A stretch of DNA of 64,000 nucleotides from an uncultured Thermotogaceae bacterium (GTDB taxonomy: Bacteria; Thermotogota; Thermotogae; MWEM01). Shown here in pieces: positions 1,016 through 54,766 of this stretch; position 1 is the stretch's first letter, and the number at the start of each line of letters is the position of its first letter. The stretch spans positions 9,691 to 73,690 of the forward strand of contig CAZOJQ010000005.1 in the NCBI GenBank assembly GCA_964580185.1. The letters run 5' to 3'. A program made the position numbers and the translations under genes. The notes beneath the pieces were generated by a model. The model made no database searches. It saw only the letters and a list, made by a program, of their open reading frames with translations, and was not told the DNA's origin.

Positions 1016-2338
1016 ATGATGAACAAAAAAGGAATGATCGGAATCTTGTTGATTGGATCGCTCTGTGCGGTGATCTTTTCAGTCAATCCGATCGACCGGG
1101 CGCAGGAATACTTGGGCCATTTTTTTGAGCGCCAGTATGATCAGGCTGCTCGATTCCACGACGAGCAGATGCGGCAAGCTTTTCCAATCGCTGCAATGGC
1201 TCAGAGTGGCTTGCAGATTTGGCAACAGTTTGGGAACCCAGTTCGAATGGTCCAAATCGATACCCGTATTGTTCAGACAAATACGATCGTCAGAATGCAA
1301 GTGGAGATGGACCGCGGGTGGGTCGAGTTCATTGTCTCTGTAACGGAATCGGGAATGGTTGCCGGGTTCTTTCTCGATGTCGTTCCTGAACCGGAGCAGA
1401 AGCTTCCCGAATATATCGACCCAGACCGAATCCAGGATACGGTTCTGACCCTGGGTGAAGAACCATGGACCTTCCGCGTGGGGTTGACGGTGCCCCTTGA
1501 TGCAAAATCCTTCCCTGTTTTAATTATCATGCAAGGTTCGGGAACGCAAGATGTGGACGGGACCATTGGACCCAACAAGATCTATCGAGACATAGCCTAT
1601 GGTCTTGCGACCATGGGAATTGCGGTGGTTCGGATGGAGAAACGGTATTATGGGAAATCCCAGGAGCTTTATGAAACCTTAACACCCAGTATTGAGGATG
1701 AATACACAAACGATGCCCGTACCACCATTGAATGGGTCCGTTCTTTGCCTGGCGCGCGTCAGATTATCCTGGGTGGACATAGTCTGGGAGGGATGGTCGC
1801 GCCCAAAATAGCTTCCATGAGTTCTGAGGTGGATGGGATCGTTCTTTTAGCGAGCACCACAAGGCGGTTGATCGAGGTGATTAAAGACCAGAATCAAGCT
1901 GCTTTCGACGGATTAGAACCGTTGACTCCAGAGTTAAAGGCGTTGAAAGAGCAAGTGTTTGCTTTTCTGGATCGGGTAGTTTCTCATGAAGCGTCTCCTG
2001 AAGAGATGCTGGATACGATTCCGGTATCATACCTGTATGAGCTGGATGGCTATGATCCCTTTTATTGGCTTGAGAAGACGGATCTTCCGGTTTTGGTTCT
2101 CCATGCGGAGGATGATTTTCAGGTTACCGACAAGGATTACCTTCCATTGAAGGAAGCCTTCTATAACCGCGAGTCCTTTTCCTTTGTGTCCTTTCCAGGC
2201 CTTAGCCACCTGTTTATGGATTCAAAGGGGATGAGAGACTTGAAGTCTTTGGAATCCGTCATGGAATTGTATGCCATCCCCGCTTTTGTCGATGAGGGTG
2301 TCATTCGCGTCTTGGCTGAATGGATCTTTGCCTTGTAA
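1016..2338 (+). CDS. Secreted alpha/beta-hydrolase (esterase) with N-terminal DUF3887-like domain, Thermotoga EstD-like
   Basis: RBS AAGGAGGG and an N-terminal signal-like segment. Nucleophile elbow GHSLGG, the 'GSGTQDVDGTIGPNKIYRDIA' block, and C-terminal D (DDFQV) and H (LSHLF). Confidence 0.8.
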   Translation: MMNKKGMIGILLIGSLCAVIFSVNPIDRAQEYLGHFFERQYDQAARFHDEQMRQAFPIAAMAQSGLQIWQQFGNPVRMVQIDTRIVQTNTIVRMQVEMDRGWVEFIVSVTESGMVAGFFLDVVPEPEQKLPEYIDPDRIQDTVLTLGEEPWTFRVGLTVPLDAKSFPVLIIMQGSGTQDVDGTIGPNKIYRDIAYGLATMGIAVVRMEKRYYGKSQELYETLTPSIEDEYTNDARTTIEWVRSLPGARQIILGGHSLGGMVAPKIASMSSEVDGIVLLASTTRRLIEVIKDQNQAAFDGLEPLTPELKALKEQVFAFLDRVVSHEASPEEMLDTIPVSYLYELDGYDPFYWLEKTDLPVLVLHAEDDFQVTDKDYLPLKEAFYNRESFSFVSFPGLSHLFMDSKGMRDLKSLESVMELYAIPAFVDEGVIRVLAEWIFAL

Positions 2339-30939: not shown

Positions 30940-33900
30940 TTATCGGCCGACCATTCCTACCCCATCAATTACTCTTTGGATCATCTGGTCCACAGCGGTA
31001 ATCACACGAGCTGCCGCATTGAAGGCATGCTGGTATTTGATCATATTGGACATCTCTTCGTCCAAAGAGACTCCTTTGACCCGCTCGCGTTCATTATCGA
31101 TGGATAGACGCATCGTTTCACTGTTGGATTTCATACGCATGGCTGTCTCGGCTTCGATCCCCATTTCTGAGACGAATACACCAAAAAAATCGGAAAAGGA
31201 TACCCTTCCGTCATCCATTTGGAGCGAATGACGAGAGAAGTTCATGATCGTTACCAAATCAACATTGGTTCCGCCCCTTGGGACATGAACGTCCGAGATC
31301 CAATCTCCGTTGAGATCCATCCTTTTCCCAAAATCAACGGCAAACAGTTGGGGGTTTGCCTGTAACTGGGATGATAGCGCCATCCGATTCACAAAGTTAT
31401 AGATTCCGTTTGCTTGACGCTGATCGATGTTCAAAGCGTCGAAAATGATTTCTTGATGGTGCTGGGAGCGGGGATCCAGATAGTTTCGGATGATATCCGG
31501 ATTATATCCCCACGAACTGGAGAAGAAGGGATCAGCGTTCATGAACCCCATTTTTTCCAAAAAGATCGTAGGCGCTTTGATATCGTACATTTGAACGATC
31601 CGCCCGTCTTGGAGACGTTGGCCAAAGCTGAAATCCATTGTGCGTCCCGCTCGGAAGACCAGTTTCTGATCAGGCGTCAAGTCTGCTTGAATGCCTGAAG
31701 GCGCTTGCTGGTTAATCATTTGAACCAGATCAGTGAGTGTGGATTGGTTCATATCGACTCGGATCGGTTTCCGCCCGACCGTCAGTTCAAACTGATCGGG
31801 TGGAAGTTGAACTTTAAGCTTGAAGTCTAGGAACGAAGGCGGGTTCGCCGGATTGGCGAAACTGACAGCGTTTTCTGATAGATCCAGAGTATAGGCGGTT
31901 CCAACCGATCCATTCAGGTTGAAGCTTTCTTGATTCCAGAAAACGATATCGACGTTTTCGCCCGGATCCCCATCCAAAACAATCTCTTTTTGTTGGGGAT
32001 CATAACGGAACGCGTATTCTGTTCCAGTAATATTCCCAAATACTTTCAGATCCAAGTTGTTGATGATTCCATCCTCATTCAGGTCGAAGATCTTGGAGAT
32101 ATCGAATCCTGTCACTCGAAACTGGGTAGATGGGAGGATTTGCTCCATGACGAACCCCAAACCACCGTTATCATCCAGAGTCGCGTACTGCAACTGAATC
32201 TTTCCATGAAAGTCTTTCAACCGGTTCACAAGAGATAGGTCAACTTGGTTGGGCGCGCCAAGAACGAGAGAATGATCCGATGAGGAGGCGTACGCAAAGG
32301 AGTACATGATATTGCTCAGGTTCTGATAGGCATCGGTATCCAGGACATTGAGCGTTGCAGATTTCAGGACATTGAACTCGTCGTGGGTAACGACGTTGGC
32401 AATCGATTCTAGCTTAGGGGTGTGAGTGACAAAGAACCGGCCTTCATGCTCGAAGGCCTTGATGTATTGGTTCAGTTCGGTATTGTTGTTGATTTTGTAG
32501 ATCAATTCATCCCGGGATCGATATTGAATTTCAAAGGTCTTATTCTCGTTCTTGAAGGTGGTTGGATGGATCACTGGAACCGTAAACGAAATGCTTCGGA
32601 ACTTCTCATCCCGGAATATTTGGGGAGTCAGAATACTCCCTGGATCTTTGACTTCGATGTTATGAAGATGATCCAGGTTTTGAAGATCAATCAACTCCTG
32701 TTTGGGGACAAGCACGTCTTTTCCGTTGATTTGAGTAAACTCGATGTATTTGTTGAGCTCTTCGTCCGCTTGAATCATGTCCCTCAGCTCTGTTTTGCTT
32801 GAAAAGGTGACCTCACGATAAAAAGTCGGGTCTTCATTCTGATCAAGCACAGGAAACCGGAATCCGATAGTCGAATTGGGCGCAACCGGGCCCACTTCGT
32901 AATACCACTGAGGTTCAAGGATATTGTCGGGGATCTGCACCACACCGATTTCCAGAAATTGCTGGGTCTTCGTGGAAAACCCCATCCGGGCCAAAAGGCC
33001 GTCTGTGTCGACCATCAACAAGTCACGCATATTGGCCAAAGAATTCACCAGTTCCTCTTGAAAGACCCCCTGATAATCGAGACCATCATGCACTTTCCCC
33101 AAAAGCATCTTGTGGTACCCAAGATCGGTATGCATTGAATCGGATCGGATCGACTCCAGATAGATCTTTATCTCGGTCTCGTCGAGCGGGTACTCCTTGA
33201 TGACAGCGACAAAATCATCTTCACTGACCCCTGCTGAAAAATCGAGAGAGAAAAAATCAACATCCGGGACACCAAGGGCGCTGTTCAAATCAATTACTCC
33301 ATCGGTTACATCTCCCCCCGCCCCTCCTTGGACGTTGGACGAAGTCCATCGTCGGATTTGAATATCTACGGTCGGATTGTCTTGAAGGGCTTGGAGAAAA
33401 CCCGCATCTGTGATGGTTAGTTCGCCTGTGGCGGCATTGTGGGTGATGTCACTGGGATCGATCACGACCCAATCGGGAATCGGTAAACTTGCATCCCACC
33501 ATCGGATTCGGAAATCCGCTCCGTTCAAGAGATCTTGTCCCAATGGGTTTGTATCCTGATTGATGTTGATCCAATCGTTGGCGTCGATCACTTCGGAATT
33601 GACGCTCAGAGCTTCCTGAGTCACATAGTACAGTTTGAGCGAATCATTGTATGCATATTCAATCGGAGCGACAGTATAGTCATCGAGAGTAAGGGTTTCA
33701 GAACCAGGAGTCGCATCATAGGTCGTATCGGTATTGACGATCCTCAAGGAAGGGAATAGGTTTTGCAGGGTGCGAATGTCATCGTAGATTCCTTCGGAAA
33801 TGCTGATCATTTCTGATTTCCATTGACCGATTCGCACGTAACCGGAGTATCCACGATCCGCGCCGGTAATCATAATCTCTCCGCGTTCTCGGTCATAAAG

Positions 33901-35427
33901 AAACCCGCTGACTTCTTGCCAAATCGAAGAAGAATCGTCCCAATAGGAGATCGTCAAATCGTCGCGGGTGAACAACCCATCGGTATTGATATCGATCAGT
34001 CTTTCATCGACTTGGATGATTCCCATCTCCGACCGGATCGGCTCCATAAAGGTTCGATAGAAGATCTCCGCTTCTCCCGTATAGGTATTGAAATCCTGCA
34101 AACGGATTTCATAGTCGTTGGCTGAACCAGCGGGGGGGAAGTATGTAAAATTATGCGCTTGTGTGCTAAGGAGTTTGGCGCGATTCAGCGCTTGGATCAC
34201 ATCTTCATAGACTTGATCAGCAGTAAAAATATTGGTCGTGATGGTTCGGTTCTGGAATCCATGCGTCAGATCGATCATACCGATGCTCCCGCCTTTGGCC
34301 AACGACACATTTTGCGGATTTACGGTCGATATTGCGTTGACCAAACGGATGGGTCCACTCATGACCGCGTTCTGTCCCGCCAGGCGAAAGAGATTGGGCA
34401 GGCTGGTTCGAGAAGCTTCCATGGTCTTGAAAAAATCGATTCCCGAGATAACGCCGTTTTGGTCAAAACCCGAACGATGGATTAAGTTAATCTTGTCAGT
34501 AAGCATCAGCGCCATTTCATCGTAGCGGTCCAGGTACTTCGGAATGACCGTGTCCCTAAGATTGACGATGGCGCCTAAGTGCCCTCCGGTTACGGAAATT
34601 TTCGTGCTCCGAACGAAAAGATCATAGGTATCCAACGTTCCGGGCCGAGCAGAAGCGGTAAGAGGACTGACATGATCCCCGTGCACAACTACCTGATCTC
34701 CAATATAGACTTCCAGATGGCCATTCGGACCCGTTCGATAGGTAACTCCCGCAATCTCATTCAATCGATCCATCAGCTTATCCCGCTCATCAAGCAAGTC
34801 ATTGGGTTCTGTCTGGATGATATAGGATGATCGGACTTTGTTATTGAGGTCTGCAATCTGCCGCAAGATATTGTTGATCTGATCTACGGAGAGTCGGATA
34901 TCCTGATTGAGGTTTGTTCGCAACTCTTCAAACCGGTTGTAGGTATCTTTCAGCATGACGATGAACGTTTCAGTTTTCGATGCGACCTGCGCGATTGTTG
35001 CTGAATTGAGGGGATCATTCATCACTTCGGCAAAAGAAGACCACATATCGTCAAAGTGTTTCCGAAGGCCAGCTTCTGACGGTTCTGCCAGCAATTGTTC
35101 CATGTAGTGCAGGTTATGGGTCATTTTATCCCAATACGCATAATTCTTGGTGATTTCGCGATATTGAATATCCAAGAACACATCGCGGACCCGTTCCACC
35201 CGTTTGACCATGGATCCTGTTCCGAGCATCATCGGAACACCCGATTGGGTCATCGATGAATAAGGGACTGGAGGAGTGGCGTGGATCTCCGGGCGTTGGC
35301 GAGAAAAACCCGGGGTGTTGACATTCGCAATATTATGGGCGGTGATGCTCATAGCAAGTTTTGAGGTATATGTTCCAAGGACACCCGTATTCAAAATCGA
35401 AAAGATGCTGAAATTACTCATAATCAT
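30940..35427 (-). CDS. flgK: Flagellar hook-associated protein FlgK, very large (1495 aa)
   Basis: N-terminal 'TAHNIANVNTPGFSRQR', 'RVRDVFLD' and 'PNDLLDERD', and C-terminal 'GVSLDEEMSNMIKYQHAFNAAARVI'. About 1000 aa of extra central sequence. Confidence 0.93.
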   Translation of the reverse strand: MIMSNFSIFSILNTGVLGTYTSKLAMSITAHNIANVNTPGFSRQRPEIHATPPVPYSSMTQSGVPMMLGTGSMVKRVERVRDVFLDIQYREITKNYAYWDKMTHNLHYMEQLLAEPSEAGLRKHFDDMWSSFAEVMNDPLNSATIAQVASKTETFIVMLKDTYNRFEELRTNLNQDIRLSVDQINNILRQIADLNNKVRSSYIIQTEPNDLLDERDKLMDRLNEIAGVTYRTGPNGHLEVYIGDQVVVHGDHVSPLTASARPGTLDTYDLFVRSTKISVTGGHLGAIVNLRDTVIPKYLDRYDEMALMLTDKINLIHRSGFDQNGVISGIDFFKTMEASRTSLPNLFRLAGQNAVMSGPIRLVNAISTVNPQNVSLAKGGSIGMIDLTHGFQNRTITTNIFTADQVYEDVIQALNRAKLLSTQAHNFTYFPPAGSANDYEIRLQDFNTYTGEAEIFYRTFMEPIRSEMGIIQVDERLIDINTDGLFTRDDLTISYWDDSSSIWQEVSGFLYDRERGEIMITGADRGYSGYVRIGQWKSEMISISEGIYDDIRTLQNLFPSLRIVNTDTTYDATPGSETLTLDDYTVAPIEYAYNDSLKLYYVTQEALSVNSEVIDANDWININQDTNPLGQDLLNGADFRIRWWDASLPIPDWVVIDPSDITHNAATGELTITDAGFLQALQDNPTVDIQIRRWTSSNVQGGAGGDVTDGVIDLNSALGVPDVDFFSLDFSAGVSEDDFVAVIKEYPLDETEIKIYLESIRSDSMHTDLGYHKMLLGKVHDGLDYQGVFQEELVNSLANMRDLLMVDTDGLLARMGFSTKTQQFLEIGVVQIPDNILEPQWYYEVGPVAPNSTIGFRFPVLDQNEDPTFYREVTFSSKTELRDMIQADEELNKYIEFTQINGKDVLVPKQELIDLQNLDHLHNIEVKDPGSILTPQIFRDEKFRSISFTVPVIHPTTFKNENKTFEIQYRSRDELIYKINNNTELNQYIKAFEHEGRFFVTHTPKLESIANVVTHDEFNVLKSATLNVLDTDAYQNLSNIMYSFAYASSSDHSLVLGAPNQVDLSLVNRLKDFHGKIQLQYATLDDNGGLGFVMEQILPSTQFRVTGFDISKIFDLNEDGIINNLDLKVFGNITGTEYAFRYDPQQKEIVLDGDPGENVDIVFWNQESFNLNGSVGTAYTLDLSENAVSFANPANPPSFLDFKLKVQLPPDQFELTVGRKPIRVDMNQSTLTDLVQMINQQAPSGIQADLTPDQKLVFRAGRTMDFSFGQRLQDGRIVQMYDIKAPTIFLEKMGFMNADPFFSSSWGYNPDIIRNYLDPRSQHHQEIIFDALNIDQRQANGIYNFVNRMALSSQLQANPQLFAVDFGKRMDLNGDWISDVHVPRGGTNVDLVTIMNFSRHSLQMDDGRVSFSDFFGVFVSEMGIEAETAMRMKSNSETMRLSIDNERERVKGVSLDEEMSNMIKYQHAFNAAARVITAVDQMIQRVIDGVGMVGR

Positions 35428-35492
35428 ACCATCCTGTATGGAGTCTGATCCCTCAAACCCTTCATTGGATTTCCATCCATAGTCGCTTTCTT

Positions 35493-35519
35493 ATATCGGT
35501 TGAAGGGAGAACGGACTTA
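35493..35519 (-). promoter_or_regulatory. sigma28 (FliA)-type promoter upstream of flgK
   Basis: TAAG-15 nt-ACCGATAT, compared with the consensus TAAA-N15-GCCGATA(A/T). Confidence 0.7.
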
Positions 35520-35526
35520 AATGATC

Positions 35527-38500
35527 CTAGTGAGGATCTTCTTTCATCAATTCAAGAAAAACTTCAACAAGGTTGGGATCAAATTGACTTCCCGAAGATC
35601 GCTTTATTTCTTTGATGGCCACTTCTTTAGACAGAGCTTGCCTGTATGGTCGGTCGCTGGTCATGGCGTCAAATGCGTCGGCAATCGCCAGAATACGGCA
35701 CTCTAAGGGGATTGCCTCTCTGGCCAACCCCAGCGGATATCCTGTTCCATCCCATTTTTCATGGTGTTTCAGGATAAAGTCAGCGATTCCGGATAGATCA
35801 GGGGAAGCAGAAGCAATTCGAAATCCTTTTTCCGGGTGGAGACGCATGATCTCCCATTCTTCCTTCGTCAATGGCCCTTCTTTAAAAAGGATTTGGTCTG
35901 GAATGCCGACCTTACCCAAATCATGCACTTGAGCGAGGAGTTTGAGTGTATCGATCTGGGATTGAGAAAGCCCAATGCGGATGGCCAAACGCTCGCACAG
36001 TTCCGAAAGACGAATGGCATGACCTTGGGTGATAAAATCCCTCTCTCCCAAAGCCGTCATTAAGGTCTCAATGATGTGGGACCGGACACTTGTTCCCTTA
36101 TGCAGTTTCTGCCGCATCATCGCATTTTCAGATTCCTGGAACAGTTCCTCTAACGAACGATCCGGTTCTTGGGCATGAGCCATTCCGATCGAAATACTGA
36201 TCGGCAGATTTGGGTGAGAGTGGTTAAAGGTTTCAGTTGTCGACTCGATCCGTTTTTGAATGAGTTTCGCTGTATCCTCTTCCGTATTGGGAAGCAGGAC
36301 GGCAAACTCATCACCACCCACTCGGGCGATGATATCTGTTTCCCGAAGGCTTTCTTTCAAGATTTGCGCGCACGCTTTCAAGACTTCGTTGCCTTGCTCA
36401 TGACCGAAGGATTCGTTAATCAGCTTTAACCCATCCACATCTGCCGACAGGATGGTAAAGGGTGATACTCCCTTGTTTTCCCAATGGTTGAGTTCCTTTT
36501 CGAAGTAGGATCGGTTGAACAGGCTGGTTAACGAATCGTGACCACTGGAAAACTCTGCTTGCTCTTTGTACGTGACCAAATCGCTGGTATCTGAGATGAT
36601 GGTGGAGTAGTATTGGGCTACTCCGTTTTCATCTTTATGGCACATGATCACTTGGTTTACCGGTATCTCTCGACCCGTTTTATGGATCAGAATCGATTCT
36701 CCTGACCAAACCCCATGGGCAAACGCAGTGGGCAGCGCAGTCTCAAAGATGGAAGGAGATATCCGATCTGGATACAGCTCTCGAATCCCTTTTCCTTGGA
36801 CGGTTTCTTCCTCGTCCCAACCAATGAGGTTCTTTCCTTGCTGATTCATATATACCAAAGAAAAATCCGCGTCCATGAGGGCAATTAGGTCACTGCTCGA
36901 TTCGAATATGGACACGAATAGCGCGTTTTCTTCATCCAGTTTACGTCTTTCCCGAATGGCCAATACTTGGGATACGATAGTCGCAGCTGTGGTAATGAAG
37001 GATTCTTCATCGGGATGCCACTTCCGCTTGGGGCCGATATGTTCCAAGCTGACTACCCCCACAATTTTCCCTTCGGAGGTAATGGACGCGTCCAAGAGAG
37101 AGGTGATTCCCGTGGGAATGAGGTATTTTTCTGCCAATTCATAGGTCCGTTGATCCTGTTGCGCCTCTTCCGCATTGATCCGAGAATCGCGATACAGCGC
37201 TTGAAAGTAGCTTGGGAACATGTCCATCGGCAGGATTGCTCCAGAAAGGTGTTTGCTTTTGGCCTTTTGAAAAAGATCGACACACTGTAACTCTCGTTTT
37301 TCTTCATCGATCAACCAAACGCTCGCCCGCTCGACTTGCATGGAAGAAGAGAGTACCTCGGTCAGCATTTTTGCGGTTGCTTCCATATTTCCGGACGCGA
37401 TCGATGGGTCCAAAAAGAGCTTCACAACCGCCGATCTTTGGTTAAGGGCTCGGGTTTTGTTCTCAATCAATTCGTTTTCACGCGCTTGCAAGATCTTCTC
37501 CGATTCTGACAAGATCTGATTGTTGGCTTCCAGCTGCTCCATCGATGACAACAGCTCTTCATTAGTCGCTTCCAGTTGCTCTTTCATTGCTTGTAACTCT
37601 TCTTGAGAGGCTTGAATTTCCGTGTTTTTTTCGATTAGCGCCTGCTCTGCCTCTCGATGCAATTCGACCTGGCGGTTCAAGGAATGGATCGTGTTCTGAA
37701 GGGTTTGGCTCATGTGATAGAAGCTCCGGTTTAGATGGCGAATTTCTCGAATGTTGCTATGAATAGCCGGTTTTGGGATTTTCCCGTTCGCCAACTCGGA
37801 TGCGGATTGCTCCAACGCTGAGATCGGCCGAGTGACTGCTTTCGAAAGGATAAAACCAACCCCTGCTGCGAAGAAAAGAGCCATTAGAGAAAAAATGAGA
37901 GTAGATCGATTGTTTTGGTAGATCTGACCCATAAAGAGCGATTCCGGTATGGTTGTCACCAAAAACCATCTTGCATCATCAACATGCGGAATCCCATGGG
38001 CTCGGAGATAATGGTTTTCTCCGTTAGTCCGTACTACGGAGCCTTCCAGCTCGAGAATATCTCGGCCCTCTTGTAAGGATGAGAGGACGATTTCTGCTGC
38101 GCCCCGGATCTGAGGGGAGATGCTCTCCAAAGCGTGGATTCTCATCGACCCAATGTCGGGGTTGTTCATAGATATGATCGGTTCAAAGGAGGAGGTTGCA
38201 ATCAGGAACCCCGATGAATCCATGAGAAAGCTTTTTCCTTGAGCTCCTAATCGGGTATTGGATAGGAAGTGATTCAGATGAGACAAAAAGACATCAACCG
38301 AAACAACCCCCATCAATTGCTTGTAATCATCATGCACGGGCATACTCAAGGCAATGGCCAAATCCTGACCAGTTGCCAATAGATACGGTTCATTCCAGAC
38401 AAGTTCTCCGGCTGAAACCGCATTCTGATACCAGGGACGGATCGTTGCATCGAAACCAGGAACGACAGCGATCAGGGATATTTCTTCTCCTTCTTCGCTG

Positions 38501-38931
38501 AGCCCGACTTTACGGAAGGTGCCTTTTTGAAAGCGATCAGTCATAATCGCGTATAAATCTCCTTCAGGCCCTTCCCGACCCGCATTGACCAACCCTCCTT
38601 GGGGATTGCCAAAATAGATACTCGATACTGATGGGAATAGGCGAATCTCTGATAAGAAATATTCCTTCAAAGCATCGGGGTCAGAATCGTCGATCCAGCC
38701 TTTGCCGATTGCAGTGGCATTCATCCGGATTATGTGAGAGGGAACCTCGAAAAAACGATCGATTTGCTGTTTGGTATGAGCAGAGATTTCCTCCATAAGG
38801 GGCATGACTAGATCGCTTACGGCTCTTTGCGCGCTCAAAAAAGAAATCATCCCGACCAAAGCGATGACCAAAACGATCACAAACAAGAACGGGATTGTGA
38901 GTATGGAGCGTAATGAATGGGTTCGACGCAT
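35527..38931 (-). CDS. Membrane sensor diguanylate cyclase/phosphodiesterase (dCache-HAMP-coiled coil-GAF-PAS-GGDEF-HD-GYP)
   Basis: Two TMs flank a Cache-like region ('RPWYQ...WNEPY'). GAF 'RASVWL', PAS, intact GGDEF with RxxD I-site (RETD), and HDLGK and HHEKWDGTGYP motifs. Confidence 0.92.
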   Translation of the reverse strand: MRRTHSLRSILTIPFLFVIVLVIALVGMISFLSAQRAVSDLVMPLMEEISAHTKQQIDRFFEVPSHIIRMNATAIGKGWIDDSDPDALKEYFLSEIRLFPSVSSIYFGNPQGGLVNAGREGPEGDLYAIMTDRFQKGTFRKVGLSEEGEEISLIAVVPGFDATIRPWYQNAVSAGELVWNEPYLLATGQDLAIALSMPVHDDYKQLMGVVSVDVFLSHLNHFLSNTRLGAQGKSFLMDSSGFLIATSSFEPIISMNNPDIGSMRIHALESISPQIRGAAEIVLSSLQEGRDILELEGSVVRTNGENHYLRAHGIPHVDDARWFLVTTIPESLFMGQIYQNNRSTLIFSLMALFFAAGVGFILSKAVTRPISALEQSASELANGKIPKPAIHSNIREIRHLNRSFYHMSQTLQNTIHSLNRQVELHREAEQALIEKNTEIQASQEELQAMKEQLEATNEELLSSMEQLEANNQILSESEKILQARENELIENKTRALNQRSAVVKLFLDPSIASGNMEATAKMLTEVLSSSMQVERASVWLIDEEKRELQCVDLFQKAKSKHLSGAILPMDMFPSYFQALYRDSRINAEEAQQDQRTYELAEKYLIPTGITSLLDASITSEGKIVGVVSLEHIGPKRKWHPDEESFITTAATIVSQVLAIRERRKLDEENALFVSIFESSSDLIALMDADFSLVYMNQQGKNLIGWDEEETVQGKGIRELYPDRISPSIFETALPTAFAHGVWSGESILIHKTGREIPVNQVIMCHKDENGVAQYYSTIISDTSDLVTYKEQAEFSSGHDSLTSLFNRSYFEKELNHWENKGVSPFTILSADVDGLKLINESFGHEQGNEVLKACAQILKESLRETDIIARVGGDEFAVLLPNTEEDTAKLIQKRIESTTETFNHSHPNLPISISIGMAHAQEPDRSLEELFQESENAMMRQKLHKGTSVRSHIIETLMTALGERDFITQGHAIRLSELCERLAIRIGLSQSQIDTLKLLAQVHDLGKVGIPDQILFKEGPLTKEEWEIMRLHPEKGFRIASASPDLSGIADFILKHHEKWDGTGYPLGLAREAIPLECRILAIADAFDAMTSDRPYRQALSKEVAIKEIKRSSGSQFDPNLVEVFLELMKEDPH

Positions 38932-38950
38932 ACGCCTCTCCTTATTGTGT

Positions 38951-38979
38951 TCCAAGAATCTCTGCAAAACGCAGTGCTC
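38951..38979. repeat. 29-bp direct repeat, left copy
   Basis: TCCAAGAATCTCTGCAAAACGCAGTGCTC, 27/29 identical to 39850-39878. Confidence 0.9.
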
Positions 38980-38994
38980 GATGGTTACAGAAGA

Positions 38995-39813
38995 CTATGA
39001 CTCAGTAACTCTTACAAGCCACTCCCTAACTAACGCTTTGAATAGGTCTTCTTGCTCAATCTGTAGATTATGTCCTGCGCGATCCAATACGCAAAAGGTG
39101 GCTCTTGGATAGGCATCCAAAATTCTCCATGCATCTTTATACCCTACGCTTGAATCTTGGCGCCCCATAAGAATGAGAGTAGGTTTCTGATACTTTTCCT
39201 CTAACTTATCTACATCAAATGAAAACGCATAACCATTGTTTTTAAGATTACTTAAAAACCTTTCATCTGCAATTTTTAATCCGCATAATATTTCATTTTT
39301 ATATCTCTTCCATGTTCTTTCATTTTGAACGACAGCAATATCATCAAAATCTTCCGCATCAATTGGATTGATTTGCTGCAATAAGGAATCATCTTTTTTC
39401 AAAACAATATGTGGGGGAATATTCCGTTTTCGAACATCTGCTATAATACACGGACATAACAGTAATAACCCATCAACCCAGTCTCCCATTTTGTAAACGA
39501 TCCCCCGTGCTAAATATCCTCCATATGATTCACCAGCAAGTAAGAACGTTTTATTTGGAATAATTTCATGAACAAAGTCAATCACAATATCAAGCATTGT
39601 ATCCGAATTTTTAATCCATTCTTCTGCTTTTGTTTTACCCATACCTGGTAAATCCATATATATTCTTTTATATTCTTTGTTGCCTTGTAATACTGGCTCA
39701 AAACAACCGGCCATTAATCTGTGGTCAGGATAGCAACCATGAAGCATAATAATCGGCTTGCCTTCACCATAAATTTCATAATTTATATCTAAGTTTTTTA
39801 TTTTACACTTCAT
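38995..39813 (-). CDS. Alpha/beta-hydrolase, low-GC (probably horizontally acquired)
   Basis: GESYGG nucleophile motif and AGHNLQ. RBS GAGGAGGA. Visibly AT-rich relative to its neighbours. Confidence 0.9.
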   Translation of the reverse strand: MKCKIKNLDINYEIYGEGKPIIMLHGCYPDHRLMAGCFEPVLQGNKEYKRIYMDLPGMGKTKAEEWIKNSDTMLDIVIDFVHEIIPNKTFLLAGESYGGYLARGIVYKMGDWVDGLLLLCPCIIADVRKRNIPPHIVLKKDDSLLQQINPIDAEDFDDIAVVQNERTWKRYKNEILCGLKIADERFLSNLKNNGYAFSFDVDKLEEKYQKPTLILMGRQDSSVGYKDAWRILDAYPRATFCVLDRAGHNLQIEQEDLFKALVREWLVRVTES

Positions 39814-39849
39814 TATATCCTCCTCGGATCCCGCTCCGATCATGATTGC

Positions 39850-39878
39850 TCCGAGAATCTCTTCAAAACGCAGTGCTC
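39850..39878. repeat. 29-bp direct repeat, right copy
   Basis: TCCGAGAATCTCTTCAAAACGCAGTGCTC, 899 bp from the left copy and in the same orientation. Confidence 0.9.
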
Positions 39879-39887
39879 AAATGGGTT

Positions 39888-41132
39888 TCAATAATGAATC
39901 AATGGTTTTGGACGCAACCGGGCCAACCAAGCGATCAGATTGTCAGGGATTCTTCGTAACCGCGTATTATAAAATGTTGCGATATCATTGTAATAAGAAC
40001 GAGCCAACTGAATCCGATCTTCGGTGTCGATCATCGCTTTTTGCAGGTTCATCACAGAATCGCTGGATTTCAGTTCGGGGTAATTTTCAACCATTGCAAT
40101 TAGCGCCTTCTCTGTCTGTACCGGGCTTTGCACTGCTTCAGCCCTCAATTCTCCGAGGCGGTTCTGGACCGCTTGTTCATGGTTCATCAACCCTCGGATC
40201 ACCGAAACCAATGCAGGAATGAGGTCGGACCGTCTTTGCAGTTGAATTTTGACTTGGGATTCTGCTTGGCGGACTTTTTCATGCAGCCCTTTCAATCCAT
40301 TATACTCTTTCCATAGGTAACCAACGAGCCAAAAACTCGTATAGATCATTGCGGTCCAAAGGTAAAATCGACCATAATTGGGTGGTAAAGGATAGATCAT
40401 CAATTCCCCAAACCAAACAACCAGTTCAGCGATGGCAAGACCGAGAATCGTGAACACCCAGAAATAGATCCCGTAAGCCCGGCTGATCTTTTTTTCGTCT
40501 TTTGATGAGATCAAAAAAATCGGAGCTTTTTTATCGGAAGCAATTTCGGGAGCCACAATATCTTCTCGCTCCCGCGACTGCCCAATGACGTAAAGTTGAC
40601 GATCGATCGGGATGATGGTTTCGAAAAACTTCCTGCGGTGTGTGGAATCCGGTATCTCTAGCGAAGGACCTTTTCCAAAGTACAACGGATCCTTCCAACC
40701 ACAGATAGTGTTCATGACAAGCTCGCCATCAAATGTAGCCCCTTCCGGACGAACTTGGATCGATCCCGTATCATCACAGAGATCAAAACGGACATTTTTT
40801 TGTCCTCCGGCAACCTCTTTCCATCCGCTTTCTACCTTTGTTCGGGTCTGTGTGTTTCCCTTGGCATCTTTATAGGTTTCTGTTCGGGTTCGCCTCCATT
40901 GTTCCTGAATCCGCCAACGATACTGGACGCATTCTGTTTCAGTCAGATGGCTTATAAGAGGCGAGGGGCAATGAACCGTCCCCGAAACCTCTACCAAACC
41001 AATAAATACCCCTTTGGTCTTTGAGGTGGGTGTATCATCAATTAGACGTTTTTTCTTCAAATTAGACATGGCAAACAGAAGAAACAAAACGCCCAATCCC
41101 ATCCCAACTCCGAAATAGACGAGTACCCCCAT
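39888..41132 (-). CDS. Membrane protein: GIDE-like soluble domain fused to a C-terminal LemA domain
   Basis: N-terminal TM; 'LIDDTPTSKTKGVFIGLVEVSG...FDLCDDTGSIQVRPEGA' (GIDE-like); two TMs; LemA block 'QLQRRSDLIPALV...ENYPELKS...EDRIQLARSYYND...YNTR'. Confidence 0.8.
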   Translation of the reverse strand: MGVLVYFGVGMGLGVLFLLFAMSNLKKKRLIDDTPTSKTKGVFIGLVEVSGTVHCPSPLISHLTETECVQYRWRIQEQWRRTRTETYKDAKGNTQTRTKVESGWKEVAGGQKNVRFDLCDDTGSIQVRPEGATFDGELVMNTICGWKDPLYFGKGPSLEIPDSTHRRKFFETIIPIDRQLYVIGQSREREDIVAPEIASDKKAPIFLISSKDEKKISRAYGIYFWVFTILGLAIAELVVWFGELMIYPLPPNYGRFYLWTAMIYTSFWLVGYLWKEYNGLKGLHEKVRQAESQVKIQLQRRSDLIPALVSVIRGLMNHEQAVQNRLGELRAEAVQSPVQTEKALIAMVENYPELKSSDSVMNLQKAMIDTEDRIQLARSYYNDIATFYNTRLRRIPDNLIAWLARLRPKPLIHY

Positions 41133-41148
41133 TGGATGTCTCCTTCCC

Positions 41149-42201
41149 TTACAACAATACCGATGCGATTTGCTTCCGCGTTACGCTTTCCATATCTCCA
41201 CCTGAAAAAAAAGCCCGATACCATTGAAGAGTCTTTTCCAGACTTTGCTCAATAGACCATCTCGGGCGCCAAGGGAGGGAACCCAATGCTTTGGAAATAT
41301 CGAGGCGCAATTGAGGGGCTTCAAAGGGTTGTTTCTTTTGTTCCACTTCATAATGACCCGTTCCCCAAATGTGAATCGCCCTCTGAACAATCGCTTCCAC
41401 CGAAATTGCATCATCATGCTTCGGACCAAAATTCCAAGCTTGCGCATATGCCTGTCCATCCTCGTACAAGGCTTTTCCCAGAAAGAGATATCCCGATAGA
41501 GCATCCAATACATGCTGCCATGGTCTGGTGGCATGAGGGTTCCGAAGCCTTATGGGTTTATCGACTGACAGGCTACGGACAATATCGGGAATCAGTCGAT
41601 CTGGGGCCCAATCGCCCCCTCCGATTACATTTCCCGCTCGAGCGCTCGCAACGGCTGTGTCGGTATCCTGAAAATAGGAACAACGATAAGCCGTGGTAAC
41701 CAACTCGCTGCATGCTTTGCTCGAACTGTACGGATCATGCCCACCCAGCGGATCGGTTTCTCGGTATCCCCATAGTTGATTTTGGTTTTCATAACACTTA
41801 TCGGAGGTAATGTTGACAATTGCGCGGATGGCCGGATGGGATCGGATCGAATCAAGAAGGTTGACCGTTCCCATGATGTTGGTTTCAAAGGTAGTTTTTG
41901 GCTGTTGATATGACAGACGAACGATGGGTTGAGCGGCGAGATGGAAAACCAGATCCGGTCGAAAGGAGTGAATGGCAGCATTCAATCGATCCCCATCCCG
42001 AATGTCGTCAATCCTATGATTCATTTGCTTATCAAGCGAAAGGGTTTCAAAAATGCTAGGTTGAGTATTGGGATCTAGGGCGTAACCCATAACATCCGCC
42101 CCCATCGATAGGAGCCACATGCTAAGCCACGTCCCTTTGAATCCGGTATGACCCGTAACAAAGACGCGTTTTCCTGCATAGAACGAGGCAAGGGTACTCA
42201 T
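41149..42201 (-). CDS. rfbG: CDP-glucose 4,6-dehydratase
   Basis: 'VTGHTGFKGTWL', 'HLAAQPIVR', 'TSDKCYEN', 'DPYSSSKAC', 'ARAGNVIGGGDWA' and 'RPWQHVL'. Confidence 0.96.
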   Translation of the reverse strand: MSTLASFYAGKRVFVTGHTGFKGTWLSMWLLSMGADVMGYALDPNTQPSIFETLSLDKQMNHRIDDIRDGDRLNAAIHSFRPDLVFHLAAQPIVRLSYQQPKTTFETNIMGTVNLLDSIRSHPAIRAIVNITSDKCYENQNQLWGYRETDPLGGHDPYSSSKACSELVTTAYRCSYFQDTDTAVASARAGNVIGGGDWAPDRLIPDIVRSLSVDKPIRLRNPHATRPWQHVLDALSGYLFLGKALYEDGQAYAQAWNFGPKHDDAISVEAIVQRAIHIWGTGHYEVEQKKQPFEAPQLRLDISKALGSLPWRPRWSIEQSLEKTLQWYRAFFSGGDMESVTRKQIASVLL

Positions 42202-42752
42202 TGGCAGTCTTCCTTTCGAAAGGGGCTTTCAAACGCTTCAAACGGCGGAAAGCTTTGATCCCTCTCCGATATGATCGGTTCAGCGACATCCCAGGAATAC
42301 CCGAAAGAGTTCCAAAGAATCCCCGTATCGTGCGCCGGCGAATGGACCGATGTGGTCAGATAACAGACGAGGGTCTCCGGCTCCAGCGATAGGAACCCAT
42401 GGGCCATTCCGGCCGGGATATATACTGCTTTTCGGTTTGATTCGGATAATTCAATTGCAAAAAAAGAACCATAGGTCTTGTAATCGTTTCTGAGATCAAG
42501 AACAACATCTGTGATCGAACCCGTTAGGACAAAAACCAGTTTGTCGTGATGAAAAGGAGGGAGCTGAAAATGCATGCCTCGAATCGTGTTTGGACCCGAT
42601 TTTGAGGCAAAAAATTCGTGGAATTCCGGACGGATTCCCTGTTCATGGAATACCCCCGAATGATACGTCTTTGTAAAGGACCCGCGGGGGTCGCTCGAAT
42701 AAAAGGTTTCGATCACAACCAAACCATCGAACTCTGTTTGCATACATTTCAT
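42198..42752 (-). CDS. RmlC-like NDP-4-keto-sugar epimerase (dTDP-4-dehydrorhamnose 3,5-epimerase family; AscE-like by context)
   Basis: 'DPRGSFTK', 'IRGMHFQ', 'KLVFVLTGSITDVVLDLR' and 'GMAHGF'. Start reset to ATG 42752. Confidence 0.88.
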   Translation of the reverse strand: MKCMQTEFDGLVVIETFYSSDPRGSFTKTYHSGVFHEQGIRPEFHEFFASKSGPNTIRGMHFQLPPFHHDKLVFVLTGSITDVVLDLRNDYKTYGSFFAIELSESNRKAVYIPAGMAHGFLSLEPETLVCYLTTSVHSPAHDTGILWNSFGYSWDVAEPIISERDQSFPPFEAFESPFRKEDCQ

Positions 42753-43699
42753 ATGAATCCATCGCCTTTCTGTCGTGCGGCGGATTGCGTCCAATCGATA
42801 GTCCTTCGCAAAGCCTCCGCAAAGGATACACGGGATTGCCAACCAAGAATCGAATTGGCTTTCGTAGGGTTTGCGCATGCATAAGCGATCTCCTTTGGGG
42901 CATCGGATCCCCAAGATACAGCCACTGGTTTGCGCACTACACTTTCAATGGCAGAAGCGATCTGCCTCAGCGAATGGGTTTCACCCGTGCCGATATTGAA
43001 TGTGTGATAAGAGCCATCCAAAGTAGAGATTTTTTTTGTTGCCATCAAAAAGGCGTTTGCCACATCTTCACTGTACACATAATCCCACTGTTGGGTACCC
43101 GAAGAATGGACTTCGATCATTTCGCCTGAAATGGCAGCTTGGATCATCGAAGGGATGATTTTCCCTTGTCGGTCATACGGTCCAAACGGCGCAAACAGCT
43201 TGAGTGTCATGGCAATGATTCCATAATGGATGGTATAATACTTGAGAATCTCTTCGAAAGATGCTTTCGTGCTTGCGTACAAATTATACGCCCGTTTGGG
43301 ATGTGTTTCATCGATTTTGCTTCTCCCTTGAAGATCATACTCGAAAAAGGTGCCGGTATTAATGAAAAAACGGGTTCGACTACTAGCCATAGCTTGCAAA
43401 AGGAGGGCGGGAAATTCGATATTGGCTCGAATCATCCTCTTTGTATCTTCATCGGAATGTTGTTTCACATAGTCAGTGGCCAGGTGGATCACCAGATCGA
43501 TCTCTTTGTCCAAAAACAAACGGTCCAGTGTTGTTTTTCCTTCAACTACTGTTTCCCAGTGGTCAGCGGGAAAATGATCCAAAAACGCAGTCTTCGATGC
43601 AGGGCGAACATAAAGAATGACATGATGGGTTTCCCTGATCAAGGCTGGCACGAGGGTTTTTCCCAAAAAACCGGTACCCCCAGTGAGCAATATGGTCAT
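42749..43699 (-). CDS. NAD(P)-dependent epimerase/reductase (CDP-3,6-dideoxy-4-hexulose 4-reductase-like)
   Basis: TGGTGFLG and YxxxK (YASTK), 'INTGTFFEY', 'WDYVYSEDV'. ATGA overlap with rfbF. Confidence 0.85.
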   Translation of the reverse strand: MTILLTGGTGFLGKTLVPALIRETHHVILYVRPASKTAFLDHFPADHWETVVEGKTTLDRLFLDKEIDLVIHLATDYVKQHSDEDTKRMIRANIEFPALLLQAMASSRTRFFINTGTFFEYDLQGRSKIDETHPKRAYNLYASTKASFEEILKYYTIHYGIIAMTLKLFAPFGPYDRQGKIIPSMIQAAISGEMIEVHSSGTQQWDYVYSEDVANAFLMATKKISTLDGSYHTFNIGTGETHSLRQIASAIESVVRKPVAVSWGSDAPKEIAYACANPTKANSILGWQSRVSFAEALRRTIDWTQSAARQKGDGFI

Positions 43700-44469
43700 G
43701 ACCAAACGTTCCAAGGAGCTTTTTTGATTTCCCAAAGCCGTTCCAGTTCGTTTTTGTCACGCAAGGTATCCATCGGCTTCCAAAACCCCTCGTGCCGATA
43801 CGCGACCAGTTGGCCTTCCTTGGCCAGCTGTTCCATGGGCGCCCGTTCCCAAATGGATTGATCGGAATCAATCAATGAGAAAACGGAAGGTTCTAGGACA
43901 AAAAAACCGCCATTGATCCACGATCCATCACCTGCCGGTTTTTCGACAAATTCATCAACTGAGCCCGTATCATCGATCCGTAATGATCCAAAGCGTCCCA
44001 TGGGTTTGACCGCTGTTACGGTAGCCGCTTTTCCATGAGCTTTGTGGAATTGAAGCAGTTGATCGATGGCAATATCACCCACTCCATCCCCATAAGTGAG
44101 CATGAATGGTTCATCCCCCACAAAACTTTGGATCCGTTTTATTCGACCACCAGTATTCGTGTACAGTCCTGTATCCACCAAAGTAACCTTCCAGGGATCG
44201 CTCTTCGAGTTATGGATGGCTGTGGATCCACAGGATAGATCGACGGTAATATCGCTCATGTGTTCGAAATAGTGAAGAAAGTACTCCTTAATAACATATC
44301 CCATATACCCAAGGCAAATCACATATTCGTGAAACCCATAGTGCCCATACAGTTTCATAATGTGCCAAAGAATCGGTTTTCCTCCGATTTCCACCATGGG
44401 TTTGGGTTTTCGTTCCGTTTCTTCACTCAGGCGGGTACCAAACCCTCCTGCCAATAGGACAACCTTCAA
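43696..44469 (-). CDS. rfbF: Glucose-1-phosphate cytidylyltransferase
   Basis: 'LAGGFGTRLSEET..KPKPMVEIGG', 'VDTG..TNTGGR', 'LTYGDG' and 'GFWKPMDTLRD'. Confidence 0.96.
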   Translation of the reverse strand: MKVVLLAGGFGTRLSEETERKPKPMVEIGGKPILWHIMKLYGHYGFHEYVICLGYMGYVIKEYFLHYFEHMSDITVDLSCGSTAIHNSKSDPWKVTLVDTGLYTNTGGRIKRIQSFVGDEPFMLTYGDGVGDIAIDQLLQFHKAHGKAATVTAVKPMGRFGSLRIDDTGSVDEFVEKPAGDGSWINGGFFVLEPSVFSLIDSDQSIWERAPMEQLAKEGQLVAYRHEGFWKPMDTLRDKNELERLWEIKKAPWNVWS

Positions 44470-53756: not shown

Positions 53757-53829
53757 CCTGCTCAATCCTCCTCCAATCAAATTGATCCCAGGGATCCTTT
53801 ACCGTTTTGATTATATCATAGAAAGCCAA

Positions 53830-53859
53830 GAAAAAAAGCCTCAGTTCGAGGCTTTTTTC
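53830..53859 (-). terminator. Rho-independent terminator of the sugar ABC operon
   Basis: AAAAAAGCCTC / GAGGCTTTTTT hairpin, with a 7-T tract on the minus strand. Confidence 0.85.
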
Positions 53860-53896
53860 GTATCGATTGTAGGAAAATCCAACGGATCGGTTTGGT

Positions 53897-54766
53897 TCAA
53901 ATCCCTCCAAATCCGCTCATAACAAATCCCTTAACGTAATTTTTCTGGAGGTACAAGAAAACGATAACCATGGGAATGACTTGGTAGACAAGCGCAGCCA
54001 TCACCAAATGCTGGGTTTCTGTTGTGGAAAAAGCGAGTGTTAGTCTTGATACGCCCACCGGGAGTGTCATCAGGTGTTGCGCGTTGGTAGTCACAATCAT
54101 AGGCCACAGGAACGAGTTCCATTGACCGATAAAGGTGAGCGTGCCCAAAGTAGCAAGAGCGGGTTTGATCATCGGGAGGATAATCCTCAGATAGATCTTC
54201 CACAAACCGGCCCCGTCAATTCGCGCAGAGTCCATAAGCGCGTTGGGAATGGTCATAACAAACTGCCGGATCAGAAAAATCCCATATCCACTGACCACAA
54301 AAGGGATGATCAACGAGAGGTGATTGTCTAACCAACCGAAGTTTTTCATTAAATAGAATACAGGGATCAAAAAGATAAAAACCGGAAACATCATCGTGGA
54401 AAGAACAAATCGAAAAAGGATCTTCCGTCCCGGAAACGGGATTTTTGCAAAAGCAAATCCCGCAAGAGATCCCGTGAACAGAACCCCAAAGGTGCCGAGA
54501 CCTGCTACCAGTAGACTGTTCCCATAATAGCGCAGGATGGGAATTCTCCGGGGGATTTCCAGATAGTTCTTCCATTGCGGAGTTTCCGGAATCCAACGGG
54601 GTGGATCTGCAATCAATTCTTGAGAAGTCATCAGAGATGCTGAAAAAAGCCAAAAGAATGGCAGGATCATGCAAAAGGCTCCGATACACAAAATGGAGTA
54701 TTTTGCGACCGTTAAAACGACCCGAGATACTGGATACTTACGTCTCTTTTTCCGCAAAACCTTCAT
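53897..54766 (-). CDS. Carbohydrate ABC transporter permease (MalG-type)
   Basis: EAA loop 'LMDSARIDGA' and multiple TMs. Confidence 0.93.
   Translation of the reverse strand: MKVLRKKRRKYPVSRVVLTVAKYSILCIGAFCMILPFFWLFSASLMTSQELIADPPRWIPETPQWKNYLEIPRRIPILRYYGNSLLVAGLGTFGVLFTGSLAGFAFAKIPFPGRKILFRFVLSTMMFPVFIFLIPVFYLMKNFGWLDNHLSLIIPFVVSGYGIFLIRQFVMTIPNALMDSARIDGAGLWKIYLRIILPMIKPALATLGTLTFIGQWNSFLWPMIVTTNAQHLMTLPVGVSRLTLAFSTTETQHLVMAALVYQVIPMVIVFLYLQKNYVKGFVMSGFGGI

Follow-up and report, generated by a model that had tools for sequence, protein, structure and literature searches.

Gene transfer from Firmicutes to Thermotogota is reported to be frequent and is well known from phylogeny; the physical joints of such events are almost never kept. 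Here, we examine 64,000 nucleotides (nt) of DNA from an uncultured Thermotogaceae bacterium (GenBank assembly GCA_964580185.1, contig CAZOJQ010000005.1, positions 9,691 to 73,690 of the forward strand; this whole stretch is called the window), in which a foreign gene for an alpha/beta-fold hydrolase, bracketed by direct repeats, sits between a lemA-family gene and a gene for a cyclic diguanosine monophosphate (c-di-GMP) signalling sensor. Both junctions, the duplicated target, and the unoccupied allele are legible to the nucleotide, and the locus may serve as a worked example of a foreign open reading frame (ORF) entering a compact operon without a mobile element while its neighbours remain unbroken.

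Ordinary insertion sequences (ISs) duplicate 2–14 bp of their target, and illegitimate joints on record usually delete recipient DNA or duplicate kilobases. To our knowledge, within a limited literature search, a 42-bp duplication around a single ORF is a standard outcome of no described process. Two ISs, IS1549 and IS1634, are accompanied by direct repeats of 8–514 bp, with no mechanistic model put forward (PMC2266710). Thermotogae genomes have been described, in one account at least, as mosaic (PMC5398504), and in the laboratory, as two reports tell, newly transferred genes gain host promoters by microhomology-mediated duplications and deletions that arise around them spontaneously (PMC6614815, PMC11111574).

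The three genes of the locus lie on the minus strand in the order lemA-family gene, hydrolase gene, and sensor gene. The features to which we refer are as follows, in the direction of transcription and with coordinates in the window:

41132-39888, minus strand: lemA-family gene, the native upstream neighbour; 414 aa, stop TGA at 39890-39888
39845..39890, minus strand: lemA-side target copy (T1); 46 nt, that is, 42 ancestral and 4 inserted; TGAAACCCATTT + GAGCACTGCGTTTTGAAGAGATTCTCGGAGCA + AT
39878-39847, minus strand: ungapped 32-nt repeat core R1; 9 nt separate it from the lemA TGA, and 33 nt including GAGGAGG lie between it and the hydrolase ORF
39814..39844, minus strand: leader of the insert; 31 nt, CATGATCGGAGCGGGATCCGAGGAGGATATA, ~52% GC
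39813-38995, minus strand (also written 38995..39813): alpha/beta-fold hydrolase gene; 819-nt ORF, 272 aa from MKCKIKNL, Pfam Hydrolase_4, Abhydrolase_1, and Abhydrolase_6; stop TAG, then 15 nt to R2
38988..38994, minus strand: trailer of the insert; 7 nt, TCTTCTG, of which the first 6 nt resemble the post-stop sequence of donor-like genes
38946..38987, minus strand: sensor-side target copy (T2); 42 nt, TAACCATC + GAGCACTGCGTTTTGCAGAGATTCTTGGAACA + CA
38979-38948, minus strand: ungapped 32-nt repeat core R2, followed by 16 nt, including AAGGAGAGG, to the sensor ATG
35527..38943, minus strand: sensor gene including its Shine–Dalgarno sequence AAGGAGAGG (38943-38935), the native downstream gene; ATG at 38931, 1134 aa

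A repeat search of the window returns R1 and R2 as a 32-nt direct pair, 29/32 identical and 899 nt apart. This pair contains the 29-nt repeats (27/29 identical, in the same orientation) with which a preliminary description of this DNA had begun, and the distances, coordinates, and counts given there were correct: the offset from stop codon to repeat is 10 nt for lemA and 16 nt for the hydrolase gene, both copies being situated 5' of the Shine–Dalgarno sequence that follows. When gaps are allowed, the repeat lengthens to 42 nt of ancestral sequence (window 39845-39890 and 38946-38987). Extending it further, into the last codons of lemA and of the hydrolase gene, was rejected, the hydrolase C-terminus ...RVTES being common to relatives.

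What the repeats are can be read from a sister species, whose DNA is 87–88% identical to the window (33–36% difference at four-fold sites) and collinear with it over 1435-23519 and 28988-64000, so that ~57 kb are comparable. The cluster of LemA proteins at 90% identity has a second member, carried by 23 contigs (ENA, JGI, Logan, and NCBI), and in all 10 of the sister assemblies retrieved, lemA is followed by a 53-nt spacer and then by the sensor gene, with no hydrolase gene and with an identical spacer in each. The same empty arrangement, spacer included, is found in the metagenome-assembled genome 'uncultured Thermotogaceae bacterium SRP241326_co3_41'. The sister spacer, from the lemA stop to the sensor start, reads TAA CCATC GTGCATTTCGTTTTGCGAAGATTCTTGGAGCA AT ATAAGGAGAGGTTT ATG, and the proteins on either side are orthologues of those in the window (89% identity for the lemA-family protein and 87% for the sensor). 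In a more distant relative (L003; LemA 71% and sensor 54% identical), the sensor gene directly follows lemA too. The allele that the preliminary description had advised looking for, with one repeat joining lemA to the HD-GYP gene, is thus present in the sister species, and half of the counter-case set out there, which required that no such allele exist, falls away.

By alignment with the Basic Local Alignment Search Tool (BLAST), 42 nt of this spacer (sister record L012, 11243-11284) match the window twice, at 39845-39886 and at 38946-38987; they run from the lemA stop codon through 11 nt upstream of the sensor Shine–Dalgarno sequence. Because the single spacer copy of the empty site aligns to both copies in the window, the repeats are native target DNA and, on this alignment, a 42-bp duplication of the lemA–sensor spacer. 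Of the origins proposed earlier, a long target duplication is supported by the single occurrence of the native spacer in the empty site, and remnants of IS ends are refuted, since the repeats are target DNA and the insert has no terminal inverted repeats.

The hydrolase unit is also the sole indel of >30 nt across the ~57 kb aligned to the sister species. The largest other indel is a stretch of 30 nt present in the sister (CCTTGGACGTGATCATGAAAACGCAAGAAA) near window ~53835, in the intergenic region 53780-53897. LemA relatives at 55% identity (L004-L007) were considered as additional empty sites and rejected, as they are not syntenic. Those assemblies hold a polymorphism of their own, which concerns the organism whose LemA is 55% identical: an IscB-like protein of 421 aa (RRXRR + HNH, from the IS200/IS605 world) is encoded at L004 18627-19892 (minus strand) and L007 18627-19061, and is missing in L005, where OppC/OppB-type permease genes stand instead, a case of presence and absence at the synteny break.

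The gene inside the repeats is foreign. The earlier remark that an AT-rich gene stands between richer flanks is borne out by a GC content of 35.2% and a GC content at third codon positions (GC3) of 28.2%, compared with 47.1 ± 1.9% and 50.4 ± 3.1% for 40 host ORFs (z-scores of -6.2 and -7.1, respectively). The taxonomy of its best matches, a check that had been suggested, points the same way. The best protein matches are at most 79% identical, the named ones are 63–69% identical (Clostridium tagluense, Alkaliphilus, C. manihotivorum, and C. botulinum), and all named matches are from Clostridia or other Bacillota. At the DNA level, the gene is 79.5–81% identical to genes on Clostridia-like contigs of 27–32% GC, and the similarity spans the region from the ATG (39814/39813) to 38989, 6 nt past the stop codon, which is where the BLAST alignments to the donor-like genes L008 and L009 end. 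These closest hydrolase genes sit in ordinary, unrelated chromosomal contexts, and their GC3 (19–22%) is lower than that of the gene in the window (28%). The host genes have Thermotogota affinity, the LemA relatives being annotated as Thermotogota or Kosmotoga. By composition and relationship, then, the hydrolase gene was acquired horizontally from a low-GC Clostridia-type donor.

The leader contains an in-frame upstream ATG (39843), which the gene callers used, and the Shine–Dalgarno sequence GAGGAGG (39825-39819), 5 nt upstream of the ATG of the 272-aa ORF. Members of the family begin with MKC(K/V)I and end with ...RVNES, and the extension MIGAGSEEDI is absent from all relatives; the 10-codon upstream extension is therefore not native. 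From its sequence, the acquired protein is predicted to be an esterase-like alpha/beta hydrolase. Its motifs are all present (the nucleophile GESYGG and the conserved GRQDSSVGY and AGHNLQ), the ORF is intact, and the nearest solved structure is 3fsg, whose substrate is not known. An ORF and catalytic motifs that have stayed intact despite the age of the event suggest selection. The cassette has no second copy among 5.8 billion proteins, the hydrolase cluster at 90% identity having a single member, and no plasmid or phage carrier was found: the best matches on known plasmids and phages fall below 50% identity, and there are none in viral contigs. The acquired gene is not the sole member of the superfamily in the window: a second alpha/beta-hydrolase gene, native to the host, lies at 1016-2338 (plus strand). 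It encodes 440 aa, resembles the host genes in composition, and is conserved in the sister species.

Reading the joints base by base, the insert amounts to 857 nt, that is, the 31-nt leader, the 819-nt ORF, and 7 nt. T1 carries two 2-nt insertions at its 5' end relative to the sister species and ends with GGAGCAAT, which is identical to the sister. The first 9 nt of T2, TAACCATCG, equal the lemA stop and adjoining spacer of the sister, and include an orphan copy of the ancestral stop TAA. The leader opens with CATGAT, the hexamer found directly upstream of the lemA stop codon of the sister. The leader is unique in the window and not homologous to the regions upstream of the closest hydrolase genes. 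A scan with a leader 20-mer gave one match, within a gene on an unrelated high-GC contig, which was set aside as chance, and an attempt to explain the leader as a patchwork of templated copies of neighbouring sequence was abandoned, the coverage by 5-7-mers not being significant (P = 0.09–0.37).

The two copies of the target share five core differences from the sister copy and differ from each other at 3/32 core positions. From these counts, the duplication is later than the split of the two species, and by their crude ratio it would be roughly half as old. The differences between T1 and T2 sit at the outer edges (window 39879-39890 and 38946-38950), where T1 has 2+2 inserted nt plus substitutions at its 5' end and T2 has three substitutions in its last 5 nt; at the inner edges, which face the insert, both copies read exactly as in the sister species. 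The longest exact block common to both copies is 15 nt, so recombination between them should be rare.

A mobile system would be expected to leave traces, and these were sought in several ways. In agreement with the preliminary description, no integrase or transposase, and likewise no Cas1, was encountered when gene calls and ORFs (not every one of them) were screened throughout the window. The insert contains only hydrolase families among its Pfam domains, with no transposase remnant, and lacks terminal inverted repeats; the pairs of 10–20 nt scattered through it are at chance level, and none joins the two ends. The absence of attC boxes also stands: neither spacer has GTTRRRY or RYYYAAC (R'/R'') on either strand. 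The best dif-like site in the spacers scores 17/28 against a shuffle mean of 17.2, using a generic dif consensus.

Nor does the repeat recur. R1 and R2 are the sole copies in 64 kb at ≤3 mismatches (against 0 in 100 shuffles), a looser scan at ≤9/32 mismatches still returns just these two in the window (~0.01 expected by chance), and ~62 kb from the sister species likewise show no recurrence. Scanning the genome_contigs, JGI metagenome_contigs, and viral_contigs collections for the repeat core CACTGCGTTTTGNAGAGATTC gave 0 matches, which is uninformative on genome-wide recurrence because the host organism is absent from these collections (its own two copies are unmatched) and the sister version differs at 6–7/32 positions.

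Signs of a regulatory role were sought as well. An Rfam scan of 34000-44000 at E ≤ 1 gave no match, neither the window spacers nor that of the sister form RNA folds better than those of shuffled sequence (z of +0.15 to +0.76), and the sole internal palindrome of the repeat is 4 bp long. A conserved spacer hairpin was therefore dropped once the window, sister, and L003 spacers had been folded. Predictions of sigma-70-like promoters and of terminators gave none in either spacer, and a sigma-54-like reading of GAGCAC-N-TTGCA, made by eye, was discarded, as its spacing is off by one, it has AG for GG, and its hexamer is changed in the other copy. The hydrolase gene is probably co-transcribed with lemA and the sensor gene, given its operon orientation, its own Shine–Dalgarno sequence, and the lack of a terminator prediction in both flanking spacers. 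A sigma-70-like ATTACA-17-TATAAT (10/12; window 39966-39994, minus strand) lies ~75 nt before the lemA stop, within the 3' end of that gene, and might serve the hydrolase and sensor genes as an internal promoter.

The reading that we favour, and consider quite probable, is that the locus is the scar of a single horizontal transfer by illegitimate recombination, not a working mobile system. By illegitimate recombination we mean joining that is neither site-specific nor transposase-driven. The ancestor would have had lemA and the c-di-GMP signalling gene 53 nt apart, as in the sister species today, and a short piece of foreign DNA, holding one Clostridia-type hydrolase ORF and a ribosome binding site, would have been joined into this spacer with duplication of 42 bp of the target. 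The tight boundaries, with little more than the ORF inside, would reflect a small starting fragment or later trimming. Two routes can be envisaged. The ends of a break with a ~42-nt stagger might have been filled, or one end might have been lengthened by synthesis on the sister chromosome, prior to joining with the foreign fragment. Alternatively, a 48-bp tandem duplication (CATGAT + 42 nt) might have come first and the foreign DNA have entered by blunt insertion between CATGAT and the TAA of the second copy, which the CATGAT after the first copy would fit. Owing to the duplication, lemA retains a stop codon and the sensor gene its native 5' region, a possible reason why the 53-nt spacer could accept an insertion. 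The event is best read as a one-off and the insertion as now fixed.

Several observations sit uneasily with illegitimate recombination. A 42-bp target duplication far exceeds the usual illegitimate or transposase joints, with no enzyme identified, and the GC-rich leader (19–31 nt) has no traced origin. The clustering of the copy differences at the outer edges is not expected from simple neutral decay; it is expected from a single crossover between diverged spacer alleles, and error-prone processing at the outer nicks would produce it too. The CATGAT at the start of the insert (~1 in 4,000 a priori per junction, and noticed post hoc) implies that more than a simple staggered cut was involved. 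The search for recurrence of the repeat, finally, covers only the 64 kb of the window and ~62 kb from the sister species.

The crossover just mentioned is the core of a rival that we regard as unlikely, namely a Campbell-type (ends-in) integration. A circle, or a linear molecule with inward-facing ends, carrying the hydrolase gene and one 42–48-bp copy of the spacer, possibly excised from a sibling lineage that already had the gene at this locus, would have integrated via the RecA of the host, with hybrid repeats as the result on both sides; in that case, host recombination would be moving a crude cassette. All copy differences do fit one crossover between core positions 26 and 30, to the left of which the lemA-side copy is derived and the sensor-side copy equals the sister, and to the right of which the situation is reversed. 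The expected excision product, ...T-CATGAT-leader..., is also the sequence found after the first copy. However, if the edge clusters are single mutational events, such a partition would arise by chance about half the time; the imperfect 42-bp homology does not exceed the minimum that RecA usually requires, the cassette is on record in no second lineage, and the first insertion with its duplication would still need explaining. A dedicated enzyme acting in trans has a small chance, in our estimate. The candidates would be an IS1549/IS1634-type transposase, a Cas1- or casposase-like integrase, or a novel gene-capture recombinase that recognises the spacer. Integrases that attack with a stagger yield long, clean target duplications, CRISPR adaptation copies a whole repeat of ~30 bp, and the insert is cassette-like, a single ORF in operon orientation. 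Against this, Cas1-Cas2 takes prespacers of ~30–40 bp, compared with an insert of 857 bp; there are neither terminal inverted repeats nor remnants of a transposase or Cas1 in the insert or among the window ORFs checked; the repeat is ordinary spacer DNA that does not recur locally; and ~57 kb of comparison with the sister species hold no second event. The gene-capture or excision system on a non-canonical site that the preliminary description had inferred thus finds no support, the unit being the sole gene-scale difference in that comparison, unaccompanied by a second cassette in the protein search and flanked by copies that have already diverged to a 15-nt exact block. We leave a slim chance to a further reading, in which an integrase-like activity acting in trans left the 42-bp duplication behind and can paste promoterless ORFs into Thermotogota operon spacers; its source might be a transposase with a long stagger (IS1549/IS1634 type), a relative of Cas1 or casposases, or an undescribed enzyme. 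If so, the hydrolase unit would be the first recognised product of an integrase-less route of gene capture, and more insertions with 30–50-bp duplications should be expected in this genome and clade.

That the repeat is a regulatory element, a transcription factor site or a structure of the 5' untranslated region needed upstream of both genes, seems very improbable to us. It is true that each copy lies directly 5' of a ribosome binding site and that a 4-bp hairpin could form at CTGCGTTTTGCAG in the copy next to the sensor gene, its pairing being lost in the copy next to the hydrolase gene. Yet the duplication takes in an orphan lemA stop and corresponds exactly to a single uninterrupted stretch of 42 nt in the empty site, which indicates duplication rather than convergence, and the Rfam, folding, sigma-70-like promoter, and 64-kb recurrence results given above all speak against it; a regulatory need as the origin of the repeats is largely refuted. 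We give hardly any credence to a chimera of metagenome assembly, in which Clostridial reads would have been misjoined into a Thermotogota contig at a shared k-mer. The metagenomic source, a repeat length near common k-mer sizes, and the abrupt change in composition should put one on guard, but the structure is 100% identical in three records from different assemblers (the 89-kb contig of the window, an ENA SPAdes-style NODE contig, and a Logan contig). Graph paths could not have merged at repeats that are non-identical, and a misjoin would neither duplicate 42 nt of host spacer nor leave an intact ORF behind a leader of host-like GC. The GC3 of the hydrolase gene, above that of its relatives, is consistent with residence in the host genome.

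The lemA-family protein (Pfam LemA, 4.9e-31; GIDE, 1.7e-12) is a fusion of an N-terminal GIDE-type domain to a C-terminal LemA domain, and both domains are present in 120/120 of the matches listed (the best 120 of 1615); this architecture is widespread. The architecture of the sensor by Pfam is dCache-HAMP-GAF-PAS-GGDEF-HD-GYP. Elsewhere in the window, a homologue of the flagellar hook-associated protein FlgK at 30940-35427 (minus strand) measures 1495 aa by ORF (1493 aa by gene calls here and 1495 aa in the sister species, in which its size is conserved), several-fold longer than FlgK in model bacteria.

Taken as a single case, the locus is an ordinary evolutionary scar and gives no evidence of a new system; should long target duplications prove recurrent in the clade, an undescribed insertion mechanism would be indicated. 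Its place among known systems is as follows. With ISs, including IS1549 and IS1634, it shares a target that is single in the empty site and a direct repeat around the insert, and the duplications of tens of bp on record for these two ISs are the sole precedent for the 42-bp length, both elements being absent here. It departs from ISs in having no transposase, terminal inverted repeats, or IS remnant, and in consisting of one foreign ORF flanked by 31 and 7 nt. Integron cassettes, attC arrays, and CALINs (clusters of attC sites lacking integron-integrases) likewise contain a promoterless ORF with little flanking DNA in the direction of transcription and a gene-site-gene-site-gene layout. In those systems, however, the attC site is borne by the cassette, whereas the repeat here is native target DNA with a full copy already in the empty site; an attC site is an imperfect inverted repeat of 57–141 bp, compared with a unit of 42 nt, and neither R''/R' core boxes nor an attC-like hairpin nor IntI (among the window ORFs checked) was found. 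The flanking genes, moreover, are syntenic core genes and not cassettes.

Integrative mobile elements exploiting Xer recombination (IMEX) and plasmid dif (pdif) modules resemble the locus in being elements without a recombinase of their own, flanked by repeats of ~28 bp and moved in trans by a host enzyme (XerCD). They differ in that the spacers here are dif-like at shuffle level only (17/28) and the insertion lies in an operon spacer rather than at the dif site of a terminus or plasmid. Integrative elements bounded by attL and attR differ in that the 857-bp insert encodes the hydrolase alone, with no integrase among the window ORFs checked, and in that neither the element, in the protein search, nor the site, in the 64 kb and ~62 kb scanned, recurs, the next hydrolase being 79% identical and in other contexts. 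CRISPR adaptation and casposons differ as well, for there is no Cas1 among those ORFs, the repeat is single in the sister and forms no array, and terminal inverted repeats are missing. The closest likeness is to capture by illegitimate recombination or end joining during transformation or break repair, which is marked by the lack of a mobile-element signature, by single occurrence, by the small size of the fragment, and by joints at which no long homology is shared; both of the signs by which such insertions are recognised, foreign composition and relatives on the one hand and an empty site in a close relative on the other, are present. Like other Firmicutes-to-Thermotogota transfers, the locus places a Clostridia-type gene in a Thermotogota genome; unlike most cross-phylum cases, it keeps its junctions and its empty site at nucleotide resolution.

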